From NCBI RefSeq assembly GCF_053078305.1, contig NZ_CP166879.1: a stretch of DNA of 64,000 bases. One strand, 5' to 3'. A model generated the notes under the pieces. The model searched no databases. It was not told where the DNA came from and saw only the letters and a program-made list of their open reading frames with translations. Position numbers and translations under genes: made by a program. Positions 33,447 to 64,000 of this stretch are shown piece after piece (position 1 is the first letter of the stretch; each line of letters starts with the position of its first letter).

Positions 33447-34721
33447 TTACCCCGCCTTGTTATGGGGCATGGTTGGGGCAAACTCGCTTAGCTGTGTATT
33501 TAACAGCGTTACCTGTGCATTATTATTTTCTGACATCCATTTTCCGTACACCTGAAACACCATTTGCGCATCGGCATGCCCCATCTGGTTTGCTATGAAT
33601 GCAGGATTAGCACCAGCTGTTAGCGACCAGCAGGCATAAGTATGTCTCGACTGATATGATTTTCGGTGGCGGAGTCCTGCTCGTTTTATTGCTGCGTCCC
33701 ACATCTGTCTTATTGAGTCAACAGTAAAATGGTCACCATAATTTTTTACTCTCGCTGACACTTCAGGTTGAAAAACAAAGGTGCATTTTTGTTTTTCTGT
33801 TCTGCCATACTCTCTGAGGTGAACATCAATGATATGCTCTTTGCTCAGTCTCGTTAGTGTCATCTGATTCTGGAGGGCCTCGATTGCTGGCTTAATAAGG
33901 TGAATTACACGATTAGTCCCCGCCTGTGTTTTTGGTACCGTAAAATGGTCTTTTGCTAAATTTCTCCTGATCATCATTGTTCCATTTTTCAGATCTATGT
34001 CCTCCCATCCAAGTGCACACAACTCACCAGGGCGAACGCCAGTATAAACAGAAACACACCACAAATTTTTGGCTTGCTGATTTCTGCACGCATCTATAAG
34101 GCGGATAAATTCCTCCCGCGAAAGAGGATCTGGAATGGTTCTTGATTCCTTTAATGGCGATATCCCCTTAAACGGATTATCTGCCAGGTAGCTGTTATCA
34201 ACACCAAACTGGAACACGGCGTTAAGATTTGTCATGTAATTATTTACGGTAACAGCCGATCTCCCGGGTTGTGTAACAATATAGTTACTTTTGGGGATCT
34301 GGTATCCAGTCAGTAACTCTTTACGAACCTCCAGTAATTTTTCTTTATTAATCGATGAGGCAAGATTTTTTTCACCGATTATGCTCAGGATATTTTTGAT
34401 GACGGCACGGTATGTATTGAGTGAACTTCTGGCAACTTCGGCCTCTTTTAGTGCCAGAAATTTTTCGGCCAGTTCACCTATAGTCAAATTTTGTCTGGCT
34501 TCCCCAAATTTTTCCAGATTGTGGGAGTAGGGGAACTGTTTTGCGTAGTCAAAAATCCCCGTTTTTATTGCGTAACAAACAGAAGCGCGTAGTTCACCAG
34601 CGATGCGTCTGTTTTTTACTGTGTCAGGGACACCGAGGTTTTCCCTGACTCTTACGCCTTTATAAACAAACCAGATGCGTAATGTCCCCCCGTGTTTTTC
34701 TACGCCTGTCGGATATTTCAT
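33447..34721 (-). CDS. int: Phage integrase (tyrosine recombinase)
   Basis: 424-aa ORF with C-terminal catalytic R...H-x-x-R...Y region (RHTYACWSLTAG...HADAQMVFQVYGKW); adjacent to the disrupted ydfJ. Confidence 0.9.
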   Translation of the reverse strand: MKYPTGVEKHGGTLRIWFVYKGVRVRENLGVPDTVKNRRIAGELRASVCYAIKTGIFDYAKQFPYSHNLEKFGEARQNLTIGELAEKFLALKEAEVARSSLNTYRAVIKNILSIIGEKNLASSINKEKLLEVRKELLTGYQIPKSNYIVTQPGRSAVTVNNYMTNLNAVFQFGVDNSYLADNPFKGISPLKESRTIPDPLSREEFIRLIDACRNQQAKNLWCVSVYTGVRPGELCALGWEDIDLKNGTMMIRRNLAKDHFTVPKTQAGTNRVIHLIKPAIEALQNQMTLTRLSKEHIIDVHLREYGRTEKQKCTFVFQPEVSARVKNYGDHFTVDSIRQMWDAAIKRAGLRHRKSYQSRHTYACWSLTAGANPAFIANQMGHADAQMVFQVYGKWMSENNNAQVTLLNTQLSEFAPTMPHNKAG

Positions 34722-38631: not shown

Positions 38632-38794
38632 AATGGCAGCCTCTTGGTTGAGTATTAATAACTCACCACCAAGGTTTTCCACGACCATAAGGGTGGTGAG
38701 ACGTACAGGGGTGGAAATACCGGTCAACCAAGAATCCGGCCAGCCTTGCGGCTGCCCTGCACGCCCCACCATAATCTGAATGTGGCTGTGCATT

Positions 38795-38823
38795 ACGCAT
38801 AAAAAAACCGCCTGAGCGCGGTT
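38795..38823 (-). terminator. Weak intrinsic terminator between the DicF-like RNA and the Rha-like gene
   Basis: Minus-strand AACCGCGCTCAGGCGG followed by TTTTTTT; stem only 4-5 bp. Confidence 0.3.
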
Positions 38824-39119
38824 ATGCGCTTGATTGAATTCCGGGTTTCCACGCCCGGCACCCGCTTTATGAGGTGCAGATGAACTATAATTCCACCCGT
38901 TCTGGTTTTCAATAGCTACATTCAACATTTTCTCTTACCCTTCATCACCGAAGTGAACTTTGTTGATGCAGTGCCTGGTGCCTCCAGGTGACGTTAACCA
39001 GTTAACAATTAACGCCGGAATACAGAAGTATGCCCGTTACGCCCCGTAAAAGACCACTTTACGGTTTTAACTGTTCCGCGTGCGCTTAGCCGCATTCACC
39101 GCATCACAAAATTCACTTT

Positions 39120-39177
39120 AAAAAGGGTGGCAGAGCAGTCACGGAGTAGAACTGATGCCACCAAAGACTACACATGG
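39120..39177 (-). ncRNA. dicF: DicF-like small RNA
   Basis: Minus strand reads ...GGTGGCATCAGTTCTACTCCGTGACTGCTCTGCCACCCTTTTT, near-identical to the 3' two-thirds of K-12 DicF including its terminator hairpin; 5' segment diverges. Confidence 0.55.
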
Positions 39178-46094: not shown

Positions 46095-46385
46095 CCTGGC
46101 CTGAAGCATTAACAACGGTAGGAATTGCGATGGCGGTGGCGCTGGTGGTGTATTCGATTTGCCGCTGGGGATAAAAACGGTTTGCGGGAAAAGGAGAGTT
46201 AAGTAGAATTGCAGCGGGTGCTTGAGGCTATCTGTCTCAGGCATGAACACCAAAAGGCAGATAGAGAAAAGCCCCAGTTAACATTACGCGTCCGGCAAGA
46301 CGCTTAACATTAATCTGAGGCTCAATCTGTGAACGGCAAATCTAGGTTAGCCTCTTACGCGCCGAAAGGCAAGGAGAAGCAGGCT

Positions 46386-46541
46386 ATGAAGCAGCAAAAG
46401 GCGATGTTAGTCGCCCTGATCGTCATCTGTATTACCGTCATTGTGACGGCACTGGTAACGAGGAAAGACCTCTGCGAGGTACGAATCCGAACCGGCCAGA
46501 CGGAGGTCGCTGTCTTCACAGCTTACGAACCTGAGGAGTAA
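46386..46541 (+). CDS. hokD: Hok/Gef-family type I toxin (HokD-like)
   Basis: Translation MKQQKAMLVALIVICITVIVTALVTRKDLCEVRIRTGQTEVAVFTAYEPEE; upstream in-frame extension corresponds to the overlapping mok frame. Confidence 0.85.
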   Translation: MKQQKAMLVALIVICITVIVTALVTRKDLCEVRIRTGQTEVAVFTAYEPEE

Positions 46542-49165: not shown

Positions 49166-49525
49166 ATGCTCATAGATTTGGTTTTACCTTACCCGCCGAC
49201 GGTGAACACTTACTGGCGACGCCGTGGCAGCACATATTTTGTATCAAAAGCAGGGGAGCGTTATCGCCGGGCAGTGGCACTTATTGTTCGCCAGCAGCGG
49301 CTGAAATTAAGCCTGTCCGGACGGCTGGCAATAAAAATTATTGCAGAGCCACCGGATAAGCGTCGTCGTGACCTGGACAATATTCTGAAAGCACCGCTGG
49401 ATGCGCTGACGCATGCGGGAGTGCTCATTGATGACGAGCAGTTTGATGAAATCAATATTGTACGTGGTCAGCTTGTTCCTGGTGGTCGGTTGGGTGTGAA
49501 GATTTACAAAATTGAGAGTGAGTGA
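49166..49525 (+). CDS. rusA: Holliday junction resolvase RusA
   Basis: 119-aa ORF MLIDLVLPYPPTVNTYW...RRRDLDNILKAPLDAL matching RusA. Confidence 0.85.
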   Translation: MLIDLVLPYPPTVNTYWRRRGSTYFVSKAGERYRRAVALIVRQQRLKLSLSGRLAIKIIAEPPDKRRRDLDNILKAPLDALTHAGVLIDDEQFDEINIVRGQLVPGGRLGVKIYKIESE

Positions 49526-50094
49526 GCGTAAATATGATATATCCGGAAATTACAGGCAAAAGCGGCGAACATTTACGCCTGAACACGCTGGAAGCAGTCT
49601 GGATCCAGGGGAAATTACGGATGTGGGGGCGGTGGTCGTATATCGGTGGGGGTAAATCCGGAAATATGTTTAACCGGTTACTGGTTTCGAAGAAGCTGAC
49701 GAAAACAGCAGTTAATGAGGTTTTACGCAGAATGAAGAAATCCGGGCTGGAAAAACCGGAACTTGAGGCATTTTTTCGGGATATGACCAGAGGGAAGCAG
49801 AAGAGCTGGTTGTCACATTGTACAGACACAGAGGCGTTGATTATTGATCGCGTTATCAGTGAGGTGCTTGGGGAATATCCCGGGCTAATCAATATTCTCC
49901 GGCAAAGGTACGAAGGACGGGGAATGAGCAAACTGAAAATGGCCGAAAGGTTAAATGCAGATCATCCTGAGTGGACGTTGGTTACGTGCAGACGCCGAAT
50001 TGATCAGTGGTTGGGGATATCTGAATTTATGTTACATGCCCCCATGCGTATGGCTTTTGTTACAGAGAAAAAAATGTTGCAAACTGATCAATAA
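49522..50094 (+). CDS. Putative late-gene antiterminator (Q-like)
   Basis: 190-aa ORF between rusA and the terminators/tRNAs; assignment by position and loose resemblance to QuuD-type Q proteins. Confidence 0.45.
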   Translation: MSVNMIYPEITGKSGEHLRLNTLEAVWIQGKLRMWGRWSYIGGGKSGNMFNRLLVSKKLTKTAVNEVLRRMKKSGLEKPELEAFFRDMTRGKQKSWLSHCTDTEALIIDRVISEVLGEYPGLINILRQRYEGRGMSKLKMAERLNADHPEWTLVTCRRRIDQWLGISEFMLHAPMRMAFVTEKKMLQTDQ

Positions 50095-50658: not shown

Positions 50659-51717
50659 ATGCTTAATACTGTAAAAATATCCAGTTGTGAGTTAATCAAC
50701 GCCGACTGCCTGGCATTTATCCGGTCGTTACCCGAAAATTCTGTTGACCTGATAGTCACGGACCCGCCGTACTTTAAAGTGAAGCCTGAGGGCTGGGATA
50801 ACCAGTGGAAGGGCGACGATGATTACCTGAAGTGGCTGGACCAGTGTCTTGCGCAGTTCTGGCGGGTGCTGAAACCTGCCGGAAGTCTTTACCTGTTCTG
50901 TGGCCATCGCCTGGCATCTGATATCGAAATCATGATGCGTGAACGCTTCAGTGTGCTGAACCATATTATCTGGGCAAAGCCGTCCGGACGCTGGAACGGG
51001 TGCAACAAGGAAAGCCTGAGGGCGTATTTCCCCGCCACAGAGCGCATTCTGTTCGCGGAACATTATCAGGGGCCGTATCGTCCGAAAGATGCCGGGTATG
51101 AGGCGAAGGGCAGGGCACTGAAACAGCATGTGATGGCCCCGCTGATTGCTTACTTTCGTGATGCGCGTGCTGCCCTGGGGATAACGGCAAAACAGATTGT
51201 GGATGCCACAGGAAAGAAAAACATGGTGTCGCACTGGTTCAGTGCCAGTCAGTGGCAGCTACCGAACGAAAGCGATTATCTGAAATTACAGGCGCTGTTT
51301 GCCCGGGTGGCAGAAGAGAAGCATCAGCGCGGTGAACTGGAAAAGCCCCACCACCAGCTGCTGGAGACGTATACTTCACTGAACCGGCAGTATGCGGAAC
51401 TGCAGAGTGAATATAAGCATCTGCGGCGGTATTTTGGCGTGACGGCGCAGGTGCCGTACACCGATGTGTGGACGCATAAACCGGTGCAGTACTATCCCGG
51501 GAAACATCCGTGCGAAAAACCGGCAGAAATGCTGCAGCAGATAATCAGCGCGAGCAGTCGTCCGGGGGACCTGGTTGCAGATTTTTTCATGGGGTCGGGT
51601 TCGACAGTCAAAGCCGCGATGGCGCTGGGGCGTCGTGCAACTGGCGTTGAGCTGGAGACTGAACGTTTTGAGCAGACGGTCAGGGAAGTACAGGATTTAG
51701 CCAGTCAGAACGGATGA
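50659..51717 (+). CDS. DNA methyltransferase (N6-adenine/N4-cytosine, DPPY type)
   Basis: N-terminal LIVTDPPYF and C-terminal FFMGSGST motifs; 352 aa with a long insert between them. Confidence 0.8.
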   Translation: MLNTVKISSCELINADCLAFIRSLPENSVDLIVTDPPYFKVKPEGWDNQWKGDDDYLKWLDQCLAQFWRVLKPAGSLYLFCGHRLASDIEIMMRERFSVLNHIIWAKPSGRWNGCNKESLRAYFPATERILFAEHYQGPYRPKDAGYEAKGRALKQHVMAPLIAYFRDARAALGITAKQIVDATGKKNMVSHWFSASQWQLPNESDYLKLQALFARVAEEKHQRGELEKPHHQLLETYTSLNRQYAELQSEYKHLRRYFGVTAQVPYTDVWTHKPVQYYPGKHPCEKPAEMLQQIISASSRPGDLVADFFMGSGSTVKAAMALGRRATGVELETERFEQTVREVQDLASQNG

Positions 51718-51757: not shown

Positions 51758-51833
51758 GGCCCTTTAGCTCAGTGGTGAGAGCGAGCGACTCATAATCGCC
51801 AGGTCGCTGGTTCAAATCCAGCAAGGGCCACCA
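51758..51833 (+). tRNA. tRNA with CAU anticodon, ileX-like (tRNA-Ile2 lysidine type)
   Basis: Cloverleaf GGCCCTTTAGCTCAGTGGTGAGAGC...ACTCATAATCG...GGTTCAAATCC...AAGGGCCACCA; close to E. coli ileX. Confidence 0.75.
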
Positions 51834-51842
51834 TATCACATA

Positions 51843-51919
51843 CCGCCATTAGCTCATCGGGACAGAGCGTCAGCCTTCGAAGCTGGTTGCGCGGGGTTCG
51901 AGTCCTCGATGGCGGTCCA
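51843..51919 (+). tRNA. tRNA-Arg (anticodon TCG)
   Basis: Acceptor stem CCGCCAT/ATGGCGG, anticodon loop CTTCGAA, T-loop GGTTCGAGTCC, 3' CCA. Confidence 0.7.
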
Positions 51920-51932
51920 TTATCGGTATTCA

Positions 51933-52009
51933 GCGTTGTTAGCTCAGCCGGACAGAGCAATTGCCTTCTAAGCAATCGGTCACTGGTTCGAATCCAGTAC
52001 AACGCGCCA
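51933..52009 (+). tRNA. tRNA-Arg (anticodon TCT)
   Basis: Acceptor stem GCGTTGT/ACAACGC, anticodon loop CTTCTAA, T-loop GGTTCGAATCC, 3' CCA. Confidence 0.75.
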
Positions 52010-52771: not shown

Positions 52772-53019
52772 CCGGGTATCAGTCATGCCCCGAAAATTTT
52801 AAATGTCTCACAATTCAGACGGTTGACAGTTGTCTGTTTTGCGGGGAGTTTGTTAAAAGAAACTGGCATGGTGAATCCCCCTGAGCGGAGGGGCGACTGG
52901 TGCATTAGGTGTTATCTTTGATACCTAGGAAAGTGAACGCGCGGGTTTGGTTGCACCGGGCTGAACTCACCGGGAGGCACCCGGCATCATGCGCATGATG
53001 ATACAGATACGCGGCTTTA

Positions 53020-53046
53020 GCCCCTCTCCGGAGGGGCTTTTATATG
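53020..53046 (+). terminator. Intrinsic terminator
   Basis: GCCCCTC-TCCG-GAGGGGC hairpin followed by TTTTATATG. Confidence 0.6.
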
Positions 53047-53072
53047 AATTTTGTAAGATATGAGTAAACTAA

Positions 53073-58579: not shown

Positions 58580-59515
58580 ATGAAATGTGTACTGTATTCC
58601 GGTGACTGTCTTGATGTTATGCCTTCATTACTACCGGGAAGTGTTGACCTGGTTTTATGTGACCCGCCGTATGGAACCATTAAAGGGCTTACACTCCGTA
58701 CATGGGATAAGAGTACGACAGCATGGGACGATGCCTTAAATCCTGAAGATATTTTCACACAGTGCGAACGACTGCTGAGGGTGGGCGGTGTGCTGGTCAT
58801 GTTCAGCCAGGAGCCGCATACAAGCACGATGATTACTCTGGCGGATAAAAACCTGCCGTTTTTATATCGTATGGTGTGGAAGAAGGAGCATTTCCCCAAC
58901 CCGCTTTCAGTAAAAAAAGCACCTGTATCTTTATTCGAGGATATCGTTGTTTTCCGGAAAAAATATGACAGTGAGAAAAACCACCCGCTGAGGGAGTACG
59001 CCCGAAATATCCTTTCTTTCATTGGCCACAGGACAGACAAGGAAGTTAACAAAACACTGGGGCACTGTCGGGCAGAGCATTTTTTTCGCGTGAACACAGT
59101 CCAGTTTTCCCTCTGCTCACAGGATACGTACAACGAGTTAATTAAACGCTTTGGTATCGACCGTATGCCGGGTTTCATGACATATGAAGAAATGTGCAAA
59201 GTGAATTCCGGTTACGGCACTGTGGTTTTTAATCTCCCTCAGGGGAAAAAATACCGCGCAAATATTCTGGAGTACGCGCGGGAGCGGGAGCGATGGCATC
59301 CGACCCAGAAGCCAGTTGCATTACTGGAAGAGCTGATTCAGACGTACAGCAACCCTGGCGACAGGGTACTGGATTTTACTATGGGGAGTGGTTCAACAGG
59401 TGTTGCATGTATCCGGACGGGGAGACGGTTTACCGGAATAGAAAAGGATGACCGGTATTTCGCTGTTGCAAAAAAACGTCTGGAAAAAGAAAACAGTGAA
59501 ATGGTGGTGATATGA
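58580..59515 (+). CDS. DNA methyltransferase (DPPY type), second copy, inserted between endolysin and Rz
   Basis: N-terminal LVLCDPPYG and C-terminal FTMGSGSTG motifs; stop overlaps the Rz start. Confidence 0.8.
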
Positions 59516-60227: not shown

Positions 60228-60469
60228 GCGACCTTATTATCCATGCGCGGTATTGTCGCCGTATTCCTGCATTAACAGAGACCGCAGCCCGACAGGGAGA
60301 CTCCTCTGCGCGAGTGTGCGGGGATAATCAAAAACGATACACACCGGGGTTTACCGCGTTAACGGAGCGCGGCGTTGTCCCCTCATGGTCGCTGGTCCGG
60401 TGCGATGGTGGAAGAAACTGGATTTTGTTGCAACTGATAATCATTATCATTTTCTCGGGTCCTTTCCGG

Positions 60470-60660
60470 CATATGGACCCGTTACGGGGCGGCGACCTCG
60501 CGGATTTTCACTATTTATGAAAATTTTCCGGGATCCATGTCCGGTTTCTCTGCAAGTTAACCATATGAAAAATATAAAAACATGCTTTCCATGAACCGGA
60601 CATGCGCAAAAAATAGACACTAAAACCGGACATGACCGGTTTTGTTGTGATTGTGAGGTG
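60470..60660 (+). other. cos site (cosN with lambda-identical 12-nt cohesive-end sequence, plus cosB-like R sites)
   Basis: GGGCGGCGACCT at 60487-60498 followed by CGCGGATTTTCACTATTTATGAAAATTTTCCGG, near-identical to the lambda genome ends; three CCGGACATG-type motifs at 60536, 60596 and 60626. Confidence 0.8.
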
Positions 60661-60681
60661 AGAGTTTTTGCGAGGTGAGGA

Positions 60682-61191
60682 GTGGCTACGCAGACTGAAG
60701 TTGCCAGGCATTTAAGTCTGACCGATCGCCAGCTTCGCAGATTGCAGAAATTGCCGGGTGCCCCGATATCGAATAAGCGAGGGCAACTGGATCTGGATGC
60801 CTGGCGCGATTTTTACATATCGTATCTGAGAAGAAGTAAAAACGATGTGCCTGATGGCGATAGCGAAGACGACTATGAGGAGAAATTGCTTATTGCCAGA
60901 TGGGAACTGACAGCAGAACAGGCTGTTACACAGCAGTTAAAAAATGAGGTGTCAAAAGGAAAACTTATTGACACCGGGTTCTGTATTTTTGCCCTCAGCA
61001 AGCTGGCAATGGCGTTATCCAGTACGCTTGATTCCATCCCTTTATCCATGCAGCGACAGTTTCCTGATTTAACACCGCGCCATCTTGACCATCTGAAAAC
61101 CCTTATTGCGAAGGGGGCAAATCAGTGTGCGCGGGCGGGGGATAAATTACCGGATTTACTCGATGAATATATCAGAGCAACAACTGAATAA
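60682..61191 (+). CDS. Terminase small subunit (lambda Nu1-like)
   Basis: GTG start with GAGGTGAGGA SD; C-terminal half aligns with lambda Nu1. Confidence 0.8.
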   Translation: MATQTEVARHLSLTDRQLRRLQKLPGAPISNKRGQLDLDAWRDFYISYLRRSKNDVPDGDSEDDYEEKLLIARWELTAEQAVTQQLKNEVSKGKLIDTGFCIFALSKLAMALSSTLDSIPLSMQRQFPDLTPRHLDHLKTLIAKGANQCARAGDKLPDLLDEYIRATTE

Positions 61192-63091
61192 TATGATGAG
61201 CGCTGTCACAACAGCATTACAGCCCCTGATAAGGGCATTGCCGGTGACGCCAGTTGAATGGGCTGATCAAAATTATTATCTGCCTAAAGAATCTTCATAT
61301 GGTGAGGGAGAATGGAAAACGCTGCCGTTCCAGATCGCCATCATGAACAGCATGGGGAATGATCAGATCCGGACTGTTAATCTGATTAAATCTGCCCGTG
61401 TTGGCTATACAAAGATGTTGCTGGGAGTCGCCGGGTATTTTATTGAGCATAAATCCCGAAACAGTCTGCTTTTTCAGCCCACGGATTCTGCCGCTGAAGA
61501 TTTTATGAAGTCTCACGTGGAGGCGACGATTCGCGATGTTCCCTGCCTGAAAAAACTTTCTCCCTGGCTGGGACGTAAACATCGTGATAATACCATCACG
61601 CTGAAACGCTTTTCATCGGGTGTGGGTTTCTGGTGCCTGGGTGGTGCGGCAGCAAAAAACTACCGTGAAAAATCCGTGGATGTGGTCTGCTATGACGAGC
61701 TTTCCTCGTTCGAGCCGGATGTTGAAAAAGAGGGCTCGCCAACCCTGCTGGGGGATAAGCGTATTGAGGGCTCGGTATGGCCAAAATCCATTCGCGGCTC
61801 GACGCCAAAAATAAAAGGTTCCTGCCAGATCGAAAAAGCGGCCAACGAGTCGGCGCATTTTATGCGTTTTTATGTGCCCTGCCCACACTGCGGGGAGGAG
61901 CAGTATCTGAAATTTGGCGATGAGTCCACGCCTTTTGGCCTTAAATGGGAGAAGGACAGCCCCGAAAGCGTTTTCTACCTCTGTGAACATCATGGCTGCG
62001 TGATCCATCAGTCTGAGCTTGACCAGAGCAACGGGCGGTGGATCTGTGAAAACACGGGGATGTGGACCCGTGATGGTCTGACGTTTTTCAGCGCTGCGGG
62101 TAATGAAATTCCACCGCCGCGCTCCATCACGTTCCACATCTGGACGGCGTACAGTCCGTTCACCACCTGGGTACAGATAGTCTATGACTGGCTGGATGCA
62201 CTGAAAGATCCCAACGGCGTGAAAACCTTTGTGAACACCACGCTGGGCGAGACCTGGGAAGAGGCCGTGGGCGAAAAACTCGATCACCAGGTGCTGATGG
62301 ATAAGGTTGTGCGTTACACAGCGGCGGTGCCTGCCCGGGTGGTTTATCTGACGGCGGGTATTGACTCGCAGCGAAACCGTTTTGAGATGTATGTCTGGGG
62401 ATGGGCTCCGGGAGAGGAAGCCTTTCTGGTGGATAAAATCATCATTATGGGGCGTCCCGATGAGGAAGAGACGCTGTTACGTGTGGATGCGGCGATCAAC
62501 AAAAAATACCGCCATGCAGACGGAACCGAAATGACCATTTCCCGTGTCTGCTGGGACACAGGGGGGATCGATGGCGAAATTGTCTATCAGAGGTCAAAAA
62601 AACACGGTGTTTTCCGGGTGCTGCCGGTAAAAGGTGCATCTGTTTATGGCAAGCCGGTGATCACCATGCCAAAAACCCGCAATCAGCGGGGCGTGTATCT
62701 GTGCGAAGTGGGGACGGACACCGCAAAAGAAATTCTCTATGCCCGTATGAAAGCCGATCCCACGCCTGCGGATGAAGCCACGTCGTATGCCATCCGTTTT
62801 CCTGATGATCCGGAGATTTTTTCGCAGACAGAGGCGCAGCAACTGGTGGCGGAAGAGCTTGTGGAGAAGTGGGAAAAAGGAAAGATGCGTCTGCTGTGGG
62901 ATAACAAAAAGCGGCGTAACGAAGCGCTGGACTGCCTGGTGTATGCCTACGCGGCATTACGTGTGTCCGTGCAACGCTGGCAGCTTGATCTGGCTGTACT
63001 GGCAAAATCCCGGGAAGAAGAGACGACCCGGCCAACCCTTAAAGAACTGGCAGCGAAGCTGTCCGGAGGAGTGAATGGTTACAGTCGCTGA
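61163..63091 (+). CDS. Terminase large subunit (lambda gpA-like)
   Basis: Translation MNISEQQLNNMMSAV...; long stretches match lambda gpA (AVEWADQNYYLPKES, KSARVGYTKMLLGV, EGSVWPKSIRGSTPK, CPHCGEEQYLKFGD, KKRRNEALDC). Confidence 0.9.
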   Translation: MNISEQQLNNMMSAVTTALQPLIRALPVTPVEWADQNYYLPKESSYGEGEWKTLPFQIAIMNSMGNDQIRTVNLIKSARVGYTKMLLGVAGYFIEHKSRNSLLFQPTDSAAEDFMKSHVEATIRDVPCLKKLSPWLGRKHRDNTITLKRFSSGVGFWCLGGAAAKNYREKSVDVVCYDELSSFEPDVEKEGSPTLLGDKRIEGSVWPKSIRGSTPKIKGSCQIEKAANESAHFMRFYVPCPHCGEEQYLKFGDESTPFGLKWEKDSPESVFYLCEHHGCVIHQSELDQSNGRWICENTGMWTRDGLTFFSAAGNEIPPPRSITFHIWTAYSPFTTWVQIVYDWLDALKDPNGVKTFVNTTLGETWEEAVGEKLDHQVLMDKVVRYTAAVPARVVYLTAGIDSQRNRFEMYVWGWAPGEEAFLVDKIIIMGRPDEEETLLRVDAAINKKYRHADGTEMTISRVCWDTGGIDGEIVYQRSKKHGVFRVLPVKGASVYGKPVITMPKTRNQRGVYLCEVGTDTAKEILYARMKADPTPADEATSYAIRFPDDPEIFSQTEAQQLVAEELVEKWEKGKMRLLWDNKKRRNEALDCLVYAYAALRVSVQRWQLDLAVLAKSREEETTRPTLKELAAKLSGGVNGYSR

Positions 63092-63281
63092 ACTGCAGGC
63101 GCTGCGTCAGGCGCGCCTTGATTTATTAACCGGTAAACGGGTGGTGTCTGTCCAGAAAGATGGTCGCAGAATTGAATATACGGCGGCCTCTCTGGATGAG
63201 CTTAACCGTGCGATCAATGATGCTGAGTTGGTACTGGGGACAACCCGCCGTCGCCGTCGTCCGCTGGGAGTGAGGTTATGA
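63075..63281 (+). CDS. Head-tail joining protein (lambda gpW-like)
   Basis: 68-aa ORF with TGKRVVSVQKDGRRIEYTAAS matching lambda W. Confidence 0.85.
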   Translation: MVTVAELQALRQARLDLLTGKRVVSVQKDGRRIEYTAASLDELNRAINDAELVLGTTRRRRRPLGVRL

Positions 63282-64000
63282 AACGAACGCCTGTCCTGAT
63301 TGATGTGAACGGCGTTCCGCTTCGGGAGAGCCTAAGCTACAACGGGGGCGGCGCAGGATTTGGCGGGCAAATGGCAGAGTGGTTGCCACCCTCGCAGAGT
63401 GCCGATGCGGCCCTGCTGCCCGCGTTGCGTCTGGGGAATGCCCGTGCAGATGATCTGGTGCGCAATAACGGAATAGCGGCCAATGCGGTGGCCCTGCATA
63501 AGGATCACATTGTCGGGCATATGTTTCTGATTAGCTACCGTCCGAACTGGCGCTGGCTGGGGATGCGGGAGACCGCGGCAAAAAGTTTTGTCGATGAGGT
63601 GGAGGCGGCCTGGTCAGAATACGCAGAAGGGATGTTTGGTGAGATCGACGTGGAAGGGAAACGCACGTTTACGGAATTTATCCGTGAAGGTGTGGGCGTT
63701 CATGCGTTTAACGGCGAAATCTTTGTGCAGCCGGTCTGGGATACGGAGAGCACGCAACTGTTTCGTACGCGTTTTAAAGCCGTGAGTCCGAAACGGGTGG
63801 ACACGCCAGGACACGGTATGGGGAACCGTTTTCTGCGGGCCGGTGTGGAGGTCGATCGATATGGTCGTGCCGTTGCGTACCATATCTGTGAGGATGATTT
63901 TCCTCACTCCGGGAGTGGACGATGGGAACGGATCCCGCGTGAACTTCTCACCGGGCGTCCGGCCATGCTGCATATTTTCGAGCCGGTGGAGGACGGGCAG
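63278..64000 (+). CDS. Portal protein (lambda gpB-like), 5' part; continues beyond window
   Basis: Open frame from ATG 63278 to the window end (not in the track because no stop is reached); NARADDLVRNNG and IHVFEPVEDGQ-type segments match lambda B. Confidence 0.85.
   Translation, partial: MKRTPVLIDVNGVPLRESLSYNGGGAGFGGQMAEWLPPSQSADAALLPALRLGNARADDLVRNNGIAANAVALHKDHIVGHMFLISYRPNWRWLGMRETAAKSFVDEVEAAWSEYAEGMFGEIDVEGKRTFTEFIREGVGVHAFNGEIFVQPVWDTESTQLFRTRFKAVSPKRVDTPGHGMGNRFLRAGVEVDRYGRAVAYHICEDDFPHSGSGRWERIPRELLTGRPAMLHIFEPVEDGQ

Follow-up and report, generated by a model that had tools for sequence, protein, structure and literature searches.

A predicted lambda-style cohesive-end site with a divergent cosB in a lambdoid prophage of Escherichia coli

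The framework for DNA packaging at cos sites comes from phages lambda, 21 and N15 (PMC4669245; PMC9026076). Genetic work on lambda and phage 21 has established that the small terminase subunit (TerS) contacts bp 55-63 of the cosB box R3, with residues 20 and 24 of its recognition helix reading bp 56 and 59, and that packaging discriminates between the two phages by more than 1000-fold (PMC4669245; PMC9026076). The cos site described here lies in a 64-kb stretch of E. coli DNA (hereafter the window, meaning the whole stretch analysed) and fits neither the specificity features of lambda (box CGTTTCC(t/g)TTCT with helix SIRTIQNWQEQ) nor those of phage 21 (box CATGTCGGnCCT with helix DPRTIERWQSQ). 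Judged by its sequence, it is a genuine lambda-style cos in a lambdoid prophage, with cosQ, cosN and I2 essentially those of lambda, and it is highly probable that it serves as the cohesive-end site of a prophage at the Qin attachment site and works much as the lambda site does. A lambda-type cos in a lambdoid prophage is an ordinary feature, and this sequence is present many times in public databases.

The window begins in the E. coli chromosome at rstB-tus-fumC and extends to rspA-rspB. Because the segment 30149-34598 is 97% identical to the ynfB-rspB-intQ region of K-12, we place the prophage at the Qin attachment site; its integrase (424 aa; 33447-34721, minus strand) corresponds to the intQ pseudogene of K-12 and is intact. 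The genes are arranged in the order integrase, RecE-like exonuclease, Rha-type regulator, repressor, cII-like activator, O-like initiator and DnaC-like loader, after which come a Q-like antiterminator (49522-50094), a DNA methyltransferase, three tRNAs and a holin region with homology to that of phage PhiR12_1, then endolysin (57554), methyltransferase (58580), Rz (59512) and cos. The cos site is found between Rz and the genes for a Nu1-type TerS, a gpA-type large terminase subunit (TerL), gpW and a lambda-family portal. One methyltransferase gene (50659-51717) is located downstream of Q, and the second (58580-59515; 311 aa) between the endolysin gene and Rz. The three tRNA genes (51758-52009), which are of the CAT-anticodon Met/Ile type, Arg-TCG and Arg-TCT, also lie downstream of Q. 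A tRNA cluster in this position is known from Stx-type lambdoid phages; no stx-sized ORF follows the cluster in the window. Rfam matches above the gathering score (38689-39176, 46216-46391 and 52837-53049) comprise C4 antisense RNA, isrK, DicF, sok and STnc100, with C4 antisense RNA and isrK within or adjoining the Rha-type regulator gene and the sok antitoxin representing a hok/sok module.

The original prediction placed the 12-nt lambda cohesive-end sequence in this region, and we recovered it exactly: GGGCGGCGACCT occurs once, on the plus strand at 60487-60498, with no second match in the 64-kb window at up to one mismatch. It is bordered by CG on both flanks (cosN, 60485-60500), and cosN together with its flanks (positions -6 to +17) is identical to lambda and to phage 21 at 23/23 positions. 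By analogy with lambda, nicks are predicted at 60486/60487 on the top strand and at 60498/60499 on the bottom strand (PMC9026076). About 30 bp to the left, as lambda-like cos sites require, lies the packaging-termination element cosQ (GGGTCCT; 60457-60463, plus strand), the start of an extended block (GGGTCCTTTCCGG; 60457-60469) that is identical to lambda at 13/13 positions (-30 to -18). cosQ is near-invariant among 81 unique lambda-like cos sites from IMG/VR, and phage 21 (M81255; gp1/gp2 terminase) has the same cosN and cosQ. To the right of cosN, the I2-equivalent segment CTATTTATGAAAATTTTCCG (60511-60530, plus strand) is common to all lambda-like cos classes, the phage 21 annotation labels the homologous bases IHF site I2, and the whole I2 region (+18 to +45) matches lambda at 26/28 positions when the two are compared in register from the left cohesive end.

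The flanks had been described as nearly identical to those of lambda, which is true of cosQ, cosN and I2 but not of two other segments. The 11-bp cosQ-cosN interval (CATATGGACCC; 60470-60480, plus strand; -17 to -7) keeps its spacing and agrees with lambda at only 3/11 positions. In cosB (+46 to +195), the in-register identity is 42/150 to lambda, which is about random, and 36/150 to phage 21. The range first assigned to the site (60470-60660) holds cosN and the boxes described below; it misses cosQ, and the TerS gene starts at 60682. A direct repeat, TTTCCGGCAT / TTTCCGGGAT, is also present on either side of cosN (60463-60472 and 60525-60534) with a spacing of 62 bp, and its TTTCCGG cores are both kept in lambda, one on the cosQ/R4 side and one on the I2 side.

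The expectation for a 12-mer with no more than one mismatch is 0.26 per window, which on its own would make a chance resemblance conceivable. We give that explanation no weight, given the lambda-identical stretches of 23/23, 13/13 and 26/28, the exact placement of the site ahead of the terminase genes, the clustering of three boxes that are unique in the window, and the retention of the site in hundreds of genomes.

Three repeats, one of them inverted, with A-rich DNA as separator, had been noted downstream of the cohesive end, and this observation was borne out. The motif CCGGACATG has three copies in the 64 kb, at 60536-60544 (minus strand), 60596-60604 (plus strand) and 60626-60634 (plus strand), all of them within 100 bp to the right of cosN, with A-rich segments standing between the boxes. 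The expectation is 0.51 copies per window, and three copies anywhere in the window were reached in 1 of 100 shuffles. A repeat finder showed that the repeated unit is longer, namely the 12-mer CATGTCCGGTTT, found at 60536-60547 on the plus strand, as exact inverted copies at 60593/4-60604 and 60623-60634, and as an 11/12 direct copy at 60631-60642. A text search of the literature for the box sequence returned only papers on p53 sites.

We interpret these repeats, with the element between the first two, as a tripartite cosB that carries an IHF-like element at the lambda position, an assignment that is based on sequence. The R3 box (CATGTCCGGTTT; 60536-60547, plus strand; bp 50-61 from the left end) is the predicted principal TerS binding site and sits within the interval of bp ~50-65 expected of complex cosB sites (lambda, 21, phi80, Gifsy-1 and Monarch). 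Its TCCGGTT core occupies bp 54-60, preceded by a G at 60539 (bp 53). The R2 box (60593-60604, minus strand; GAACCGGACATG on the plus strand and CATGTCCGGTTC on the minus strand) is inverted relative to R3, and the two form an exact 11-nt inverted repeat (60536-60546 with 60594-60604). Between them lies the putative I1 equivalent (60557-60582, plus strand), an IHF-consensus-like 13-mer (TAACCATATGAAA; 60557-60569) followed by an A/T tract. The 13-mer has two mismatches to the IHF consensus, a stringency that is no commoner than chance in the window (557 matches at up to two mismatches vs 589 expected). Since the consensus scan is uninformative, we relied on positional conservation across relatives to assign I1.

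The third site, R1 (AAAACCGGACATGACCGGTTTT; 60622-60643, no strand assigned), is best described as a quasi-palindrome, because a perfect inverted copy (60623-60634, in R2 orientation) overlaps an 11/12 direct copy (60631-60642, in R3 orientation); the site is conserved in class members. In complex cosB sites R1 has the same orientation as R3, and here only the overlapping 11/12 copy runs that way. The claim of a lambda-like cosB arrangement can thus be retained for R3 and the inverted R2, with a candidate IHF-like element at the lambda position, but not for the box sequences or for the orientation of R1.

Side by side with lambda, the window has the same 12-nt cohesive end and cosQ block, R3 at bp ~50-61, a putative IHF-like element between R3 and R2, an inverted R2, and an outer R3-to-R2 distance of 69 bp as against 68 bp. 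The differences lie in the cosQ-cosN interval, for which lambda has another allele, in the box (CATGTCCGGTTy in the window, CGTTTCC(t/g)TTCT in lambda), in the distance between R1 and R2 (30 bp vs ~53 bp) and in the perfect R1 copy, which is in R2 orientation in the window but in R3 orientation in lambda and 21 (PMC4669245; PMC9026076). Among the described boxes, that of phage 21 is closest (CATGTC-GG vs CATGTCCGG), and its R3-I1-R2 geometry is similar (67 bp vs 69 bp); the window box differs by one additional C and a tail of TTT, and its 5' end is 3 bp nearer cosN. We considered this 3-bp shift as a possible anomaly and rejected it, because the TCCGGTT core (bp 54-60) falls inside the lambda contact zone of bp 55-63.

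The terminase genes lie directly to the right. TerS (169 aa; 60682-61191, plus strand) starts with GTG; just 5' of this start is a direct repeat (TTGTGAGGTGAG / TTGCGAGGTGAG; 60651-60679), the second copy of which provides the TerS Shine-Dalgarno sequence. TerS matches Pfam Phage_Nu1 (PF07471) with 67.9 bits against a cutoff of 30, over residues 49-150 only (profile 62-163), and shares 34% identity with lambda Nu1 and 32% with phage 21 gp1. Its C-terminal two-thirds therefore matches the Nu1 family as in lambda, whereas the N-terminal domain is outside the profile match and has a shorter wing region; the N-terminal sequence is likewise unrelated to that of phage 21. A sequence search against the PDB gave no meaningful match for TerS, and a Pfam scan of its N-terminal 58 residues gave Sigma70_r3 alone, below threshold. 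The AlphaFold model of the N-terminal domain (pLDDT 82.5) has helices at residues 4-10, 15-22 and 38-54, and a Foldseek search with the model placed winged helix-turn-helix (HTH) fold families at the top, but at weak E-values, with none at E <= 1e-3. Residues 1-54 are thus predicted to form a MerR-like winged HTH, which is the fold of Nu1 in an unrelated sequence, with TDRQLRRLQKL as the predicted recognition helix.

TerL (gpA type, 642 aa; 61163-63091, plus strand) is uninterrupted, contains GpA_ATPase and GpA_nuclease domains, and is 99% identical to that of PhiR12_1 and 66% identical to lambda gpA; at the DNA level it is ~93% identical to phage 21 over most of the gene. It is followed by a gpW head-tail adaptor homologue with a Pfam gpW match (68 aa; 63075-63281, plus strand) and by the portal gene, the first 240 codons of which (63278-64000, plus strand; Phage_portal_2 profile 2-203 of 354) are present before it runs off the window end; the original description of the portal gene as intact can apply to this part at most. 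The gene order TerS, TerL, W and portal is that of lambda.

We scanned IMG/VR with the cosN 23-mer and obtained 120 loci that fall into several cosB classes, each paired with its own TerS N-terminus. The lambda class combines the helix SIRTIQNWQEQ with the box core CGTTTCC, the phage 21 class DPRTIERWQSQ with CATGTCGG, and a third class DVRTITAWQSQ with CAGATCC; an N15-like class has its own N-terminus and the core GGTGG/GTTGTT. In the window class, TDRQLRRLQKL goes with the core CATGTCCGG and the box CATGTCCGGTTy. A further class, between lambda and 21, is seen in phage PhiR5_1 (L130, 1000-1200), with boxes CATGTCAGTTCTTCTT / AAGAAACGACATCAG / CATGTCGTAACTG and the helix DIRTIDRWQTQ.

Within the window class, conservation follows the proposed elements. 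Across 12 unique cos sites, 4/60 columns in the boxes and I1 (R3, I1, R2 and R1) are variable, compared with 14/27 in the two spacers (Fisher p = 5e-6), and the R3 box is invariant. We then assembled a more divergent set of nine members, consisting of the window and the DNA upstream of eight TerS homologues (60-77% identical), from Escherichia, Salmonella, Klebsiella, Citrobacter and Enterobacter. The layout TCCGGTT-11-13-mer-23-AACCGG is invariant in 9/9 members and the spacer sequences vary. Compared with the IHF consensus YAANNNNTTGATW, the 13-mer has no mismatches in five members, one in two, two in the window and three in one. A third box in R2 orientation occurs 30 bp from R2 in the window and in the Enterobacter member and 42 bp from R2 in the Klebsiella member, and none was detected in the other six of the nine. 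R1 therefore appears to be a variable element in this sample, which would fit its accessory role in lambda and would be an exception to the textbook rule that R1 and R3 are parallel.

In the nine members, TerS residue 20 covaries perfectly with the base just 5' of the TCCGGTT core. Four members have Arg20 together with G (ATG|TCCGGTT; 8/8 boxes), and five have Asp or Asn20 together with T (A(T/C)T|TCCGGTT; 10/10 boxes). We predict that Arg20 reads the G at bp 53. A contact between arginine and guanine, made close to the C-terminus of the recognition helix and on the 5' part of the box, agrees with the docking orientation deduced for lambda (PMC9026076). We put this contact forward as a hypothesis because the sample is small and phylogenetically related, and the covariation may reflect few independent events, since there are nine related sequences and just two box states.

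These differences bear on whether the site could have the packaging specificity of lambda (or of phage 21) and be interchangeable with lambda cos. Both phages have the same or nearly the same cosQ, cosN and I2, and cross-recognition is possible in principle because the N15 terminase can package lambda DNA although the boxes are dissimilar (PMC4669245). Lambda and 21, however, discriminate more than 1000-fold on smaller differences than those seen here (PMC4669245): cosB matches lambda at 42/150 positions and 21 at 36/150, the recognition helix shares 2/11 positions with that of lambda and likewise with that of 21, and the N-terminal domain is outside the Pfam Nu1 match. We therefore regard shared specificity as improbable. 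The statement that the prophage packages by the lambda cos mechanism is supported by cosQ, cosN, I2 and the Nu1/gpA-family terminase genes, but it does not extend to packaging specificity, since the cosB boxes and the TerS helix are not those of lambda; 'lambda-type' describes the mechanism and the cohesive end. On balance, we favour the view that the CATGTCCGGTTy cosB and the MATQ...TDRQLRRLQKL TerS domain define a distinct, experimentally uncharacterised packaging-specificity group, which would have lambda cohesive ends, escape cross-packaging by the lambda and 21 terminases, carry R1 in R2 orientation and possibly use a residue-20/bp-53 code. We found no description of this cosB/TerS pairing, of the R1 arrangement or of the residue-20/base covariation in the searchable literature.

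The mechanism that we propose draws on the anatomy of the site, its homology to experimentally dissected cos sites, conservation, covariation and the predicted fold, and from these we infer binding, bending, nick positions and specificity. Dimers of the TerS winged HTH would bind the inverted boxes R3 (60536-60547) and R2 (60593-60604), which an IHF bend at I1 (60557-60569) would set face to face, and R1 (60622-60643) would probably be accessory. Bound TerS would anchor the gpA-type TerL at cosN, where nicks at the positions given above would produce 12-nt 5' overhangs of GGGCGGCGACCT. Packaging would go rightward, into the terminase and head genes, and would terminate at the next cos via cosQ (60457-60463).

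Only five of 50,697 deposited phage records contain this cosB type, and the same five, PhiR12_1 to PhiR12_5 (PV340549-PV340554), are the only ones that cover the whole cos, at 97.8% identity. The cosN and cosB of PhiR12_1 are identical to those of the window, its TerS is 100% identical, and DNA identity is 98.4% over 60244-63700. The PhiR12 phages differ in having another cosQ-cosN interval allele (GATCCGGGCC vs CATATGGACC), mosaic early regions, and no counterpart of the additional DNA methyltransferase gene that the window has between R and Rz. Their records name K-12 MG1655 and E. coli C as hosts, which indicates that these phages have been propagated; as the sequences are given in prophage order, the ends are not mapped. 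We found no paper on PhiR12/ECOR phages, and PMC12315714 concerns other phages.

The cosQ-cosN interval of the window differs from those of all same-class relatives, and we considered whether it might be a defect. This was rejected, because the 13-mer that includes it (GGCATATGGACCC; -19 to -7, 60468-60480) is found in 9/116 IMG/VR cos sites and PhiR5_1 has a left-side cos allele identical to that of the window, with a cosB that is different again; the interval is thus a natural, usable allele. From sequence comparison, the window cos appears to be a recombinant joined at cosN, with a PhiR5_1-like left side and a PhiR12-like right side.

To estimate how widely the cosB type is distributed, we used a 261-bp query for which coverage of at least 80% necessarily takes in the window cosB. 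Of 5426 complete E. coli genomes, 1138 contained it, some of them at up to seven places. The source names of TerS homologues are Escherichia, Shigella, Salmonella, Klebsiella, Citrobacter and Enterobacter. The disparity between 1138 genomes and five phages means either that most carriers are defective or that phage isolation is biased.

The same disparity is one reason to consider that cos is intact while the prophage as a whole is defective, a relic usable only with a cognate terminase in trans or by recombination. K-12 Qin provides a precedent at the same attachment site by rspB. It has an orthologous integrase and shares patches of homology with the window (the dicF region, hokD/sok, ydfU and rrrQ), and it is a remnant that has kept a perfect lambda-type cos and NohA and has lost TerL through the tail genes. 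The remainder of the portal gene, the head and tail genes and attR, moreover, lie beyond the window end. Against this, TerS, TerL, gpW and the portal N-terminus are uninterrupted, unlike in Qin, and match PhiR12_1 at the identity given above, while the ORFs for the integrase, repressor region, O, DnaC-type loader, Q, endolysin and Rz are full length; no disruption was seen across the 30 kb of prophage inside the window, which runs from int as far as the portal N-terminus. A defective prophage therefore seems unlikely to us, though it is the most substantial of the alternatives, and the site itself is, on its sequence, very probably packaging-competent for its cognate terminase. Of the argument that the prophage is functional rather than a remnant, the part that carries over is the uninterrupted TerS and TerL, near-identical to those of PhiR12_1; an intact cos is weak evidence for a live prophage, because the Qin remnant keeps a perfect cos and a Nu1 homologue. 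Qin, which some databases give as the homologue, was also rejected as a carrier of the window cos type, because its cos is lambda-type.

Phage-inducible chromosomal islands (PICIs) have a foreign cosB next to a lambda-like cosQ and cosN (PMC6739421; PMC9026076), and some IMG/VR loci have two inverted cos sites, so we also weighed whether the window cos might belong to such an island or to another satellite that hijacks a helper terminase. It would be most surprising if it did: TerS, TerL, gpW and portal genes of its own stand to the right of the cos, with a full lambdoid region of early, Q and lysis genes to the left, its cosB has R3, a putative I1, R2 and R1 as opposed to the single R3 of a PICI cos, and the boxes covary with the adjacent TerS. 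We retain the reading as a prophage cos. In the IMG/VR contigs L005 (1393 on the plus strand, 2271 on the minus strand), L021, L023, L084, L087, L097, L111 and L123, two lambda-type cosN in inverted orientation are separated by ~870 bp, and the cosB on one side is unlike that on the other. L005 has an N15/Monarch-like TerS gene between the two and a capsid-like ORF after. The layout recalls the two cos sites reported for PICI EcCICFT073 (PMC6739421).

The interest of the site is modest and mainly for specialists in phage packaging. For annotation, the left end of the virion genome would be set at 60487, the packaging direction would be fixed and the terminase module could be assigned to the cos type. 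The cosB/TerS pairing is found in approximately one-fifth of complete E. coli genomes and in five deposited phage genomes. Shared cosN and cosQ combined with differing cosB would decide which co-resident prophages package one another's DNA, which satellites can package theirs, and where cos recombination shuffles left and right phage arms, and the Arg20-G covariation offers a simple handle on the evolution of TerS specificity. More speculatively, the lambda TerS residues that are gripped by PICI Rpp proteins sit in helices alpha1 and alpha3 (PMC6739421), and replacement of the TerS N-terminal domain might make phages of the window class resistant to Rpp-type hijacking.

Relatives within the TerS family of the window have other cohesive ends: a Salmonella locus carries GGACGACAGCCT and a Citrobacter one GGGCGGCGTCCG, and the sequence in an E. 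coli locus is more divergent (L126, L127 and L128), from which it follows that this type of DNA-binding domain is not tied to the lambda cosN. A distant, GC-rich family member in the P0086 locus (L135, 100-380) has a cosQ-like GGGTCCT and tandem CTTCCGGTTCCGGTT right before the start codon. R2 is absent at the usual offset in this locus, so its cosB may be simple (N15-like).
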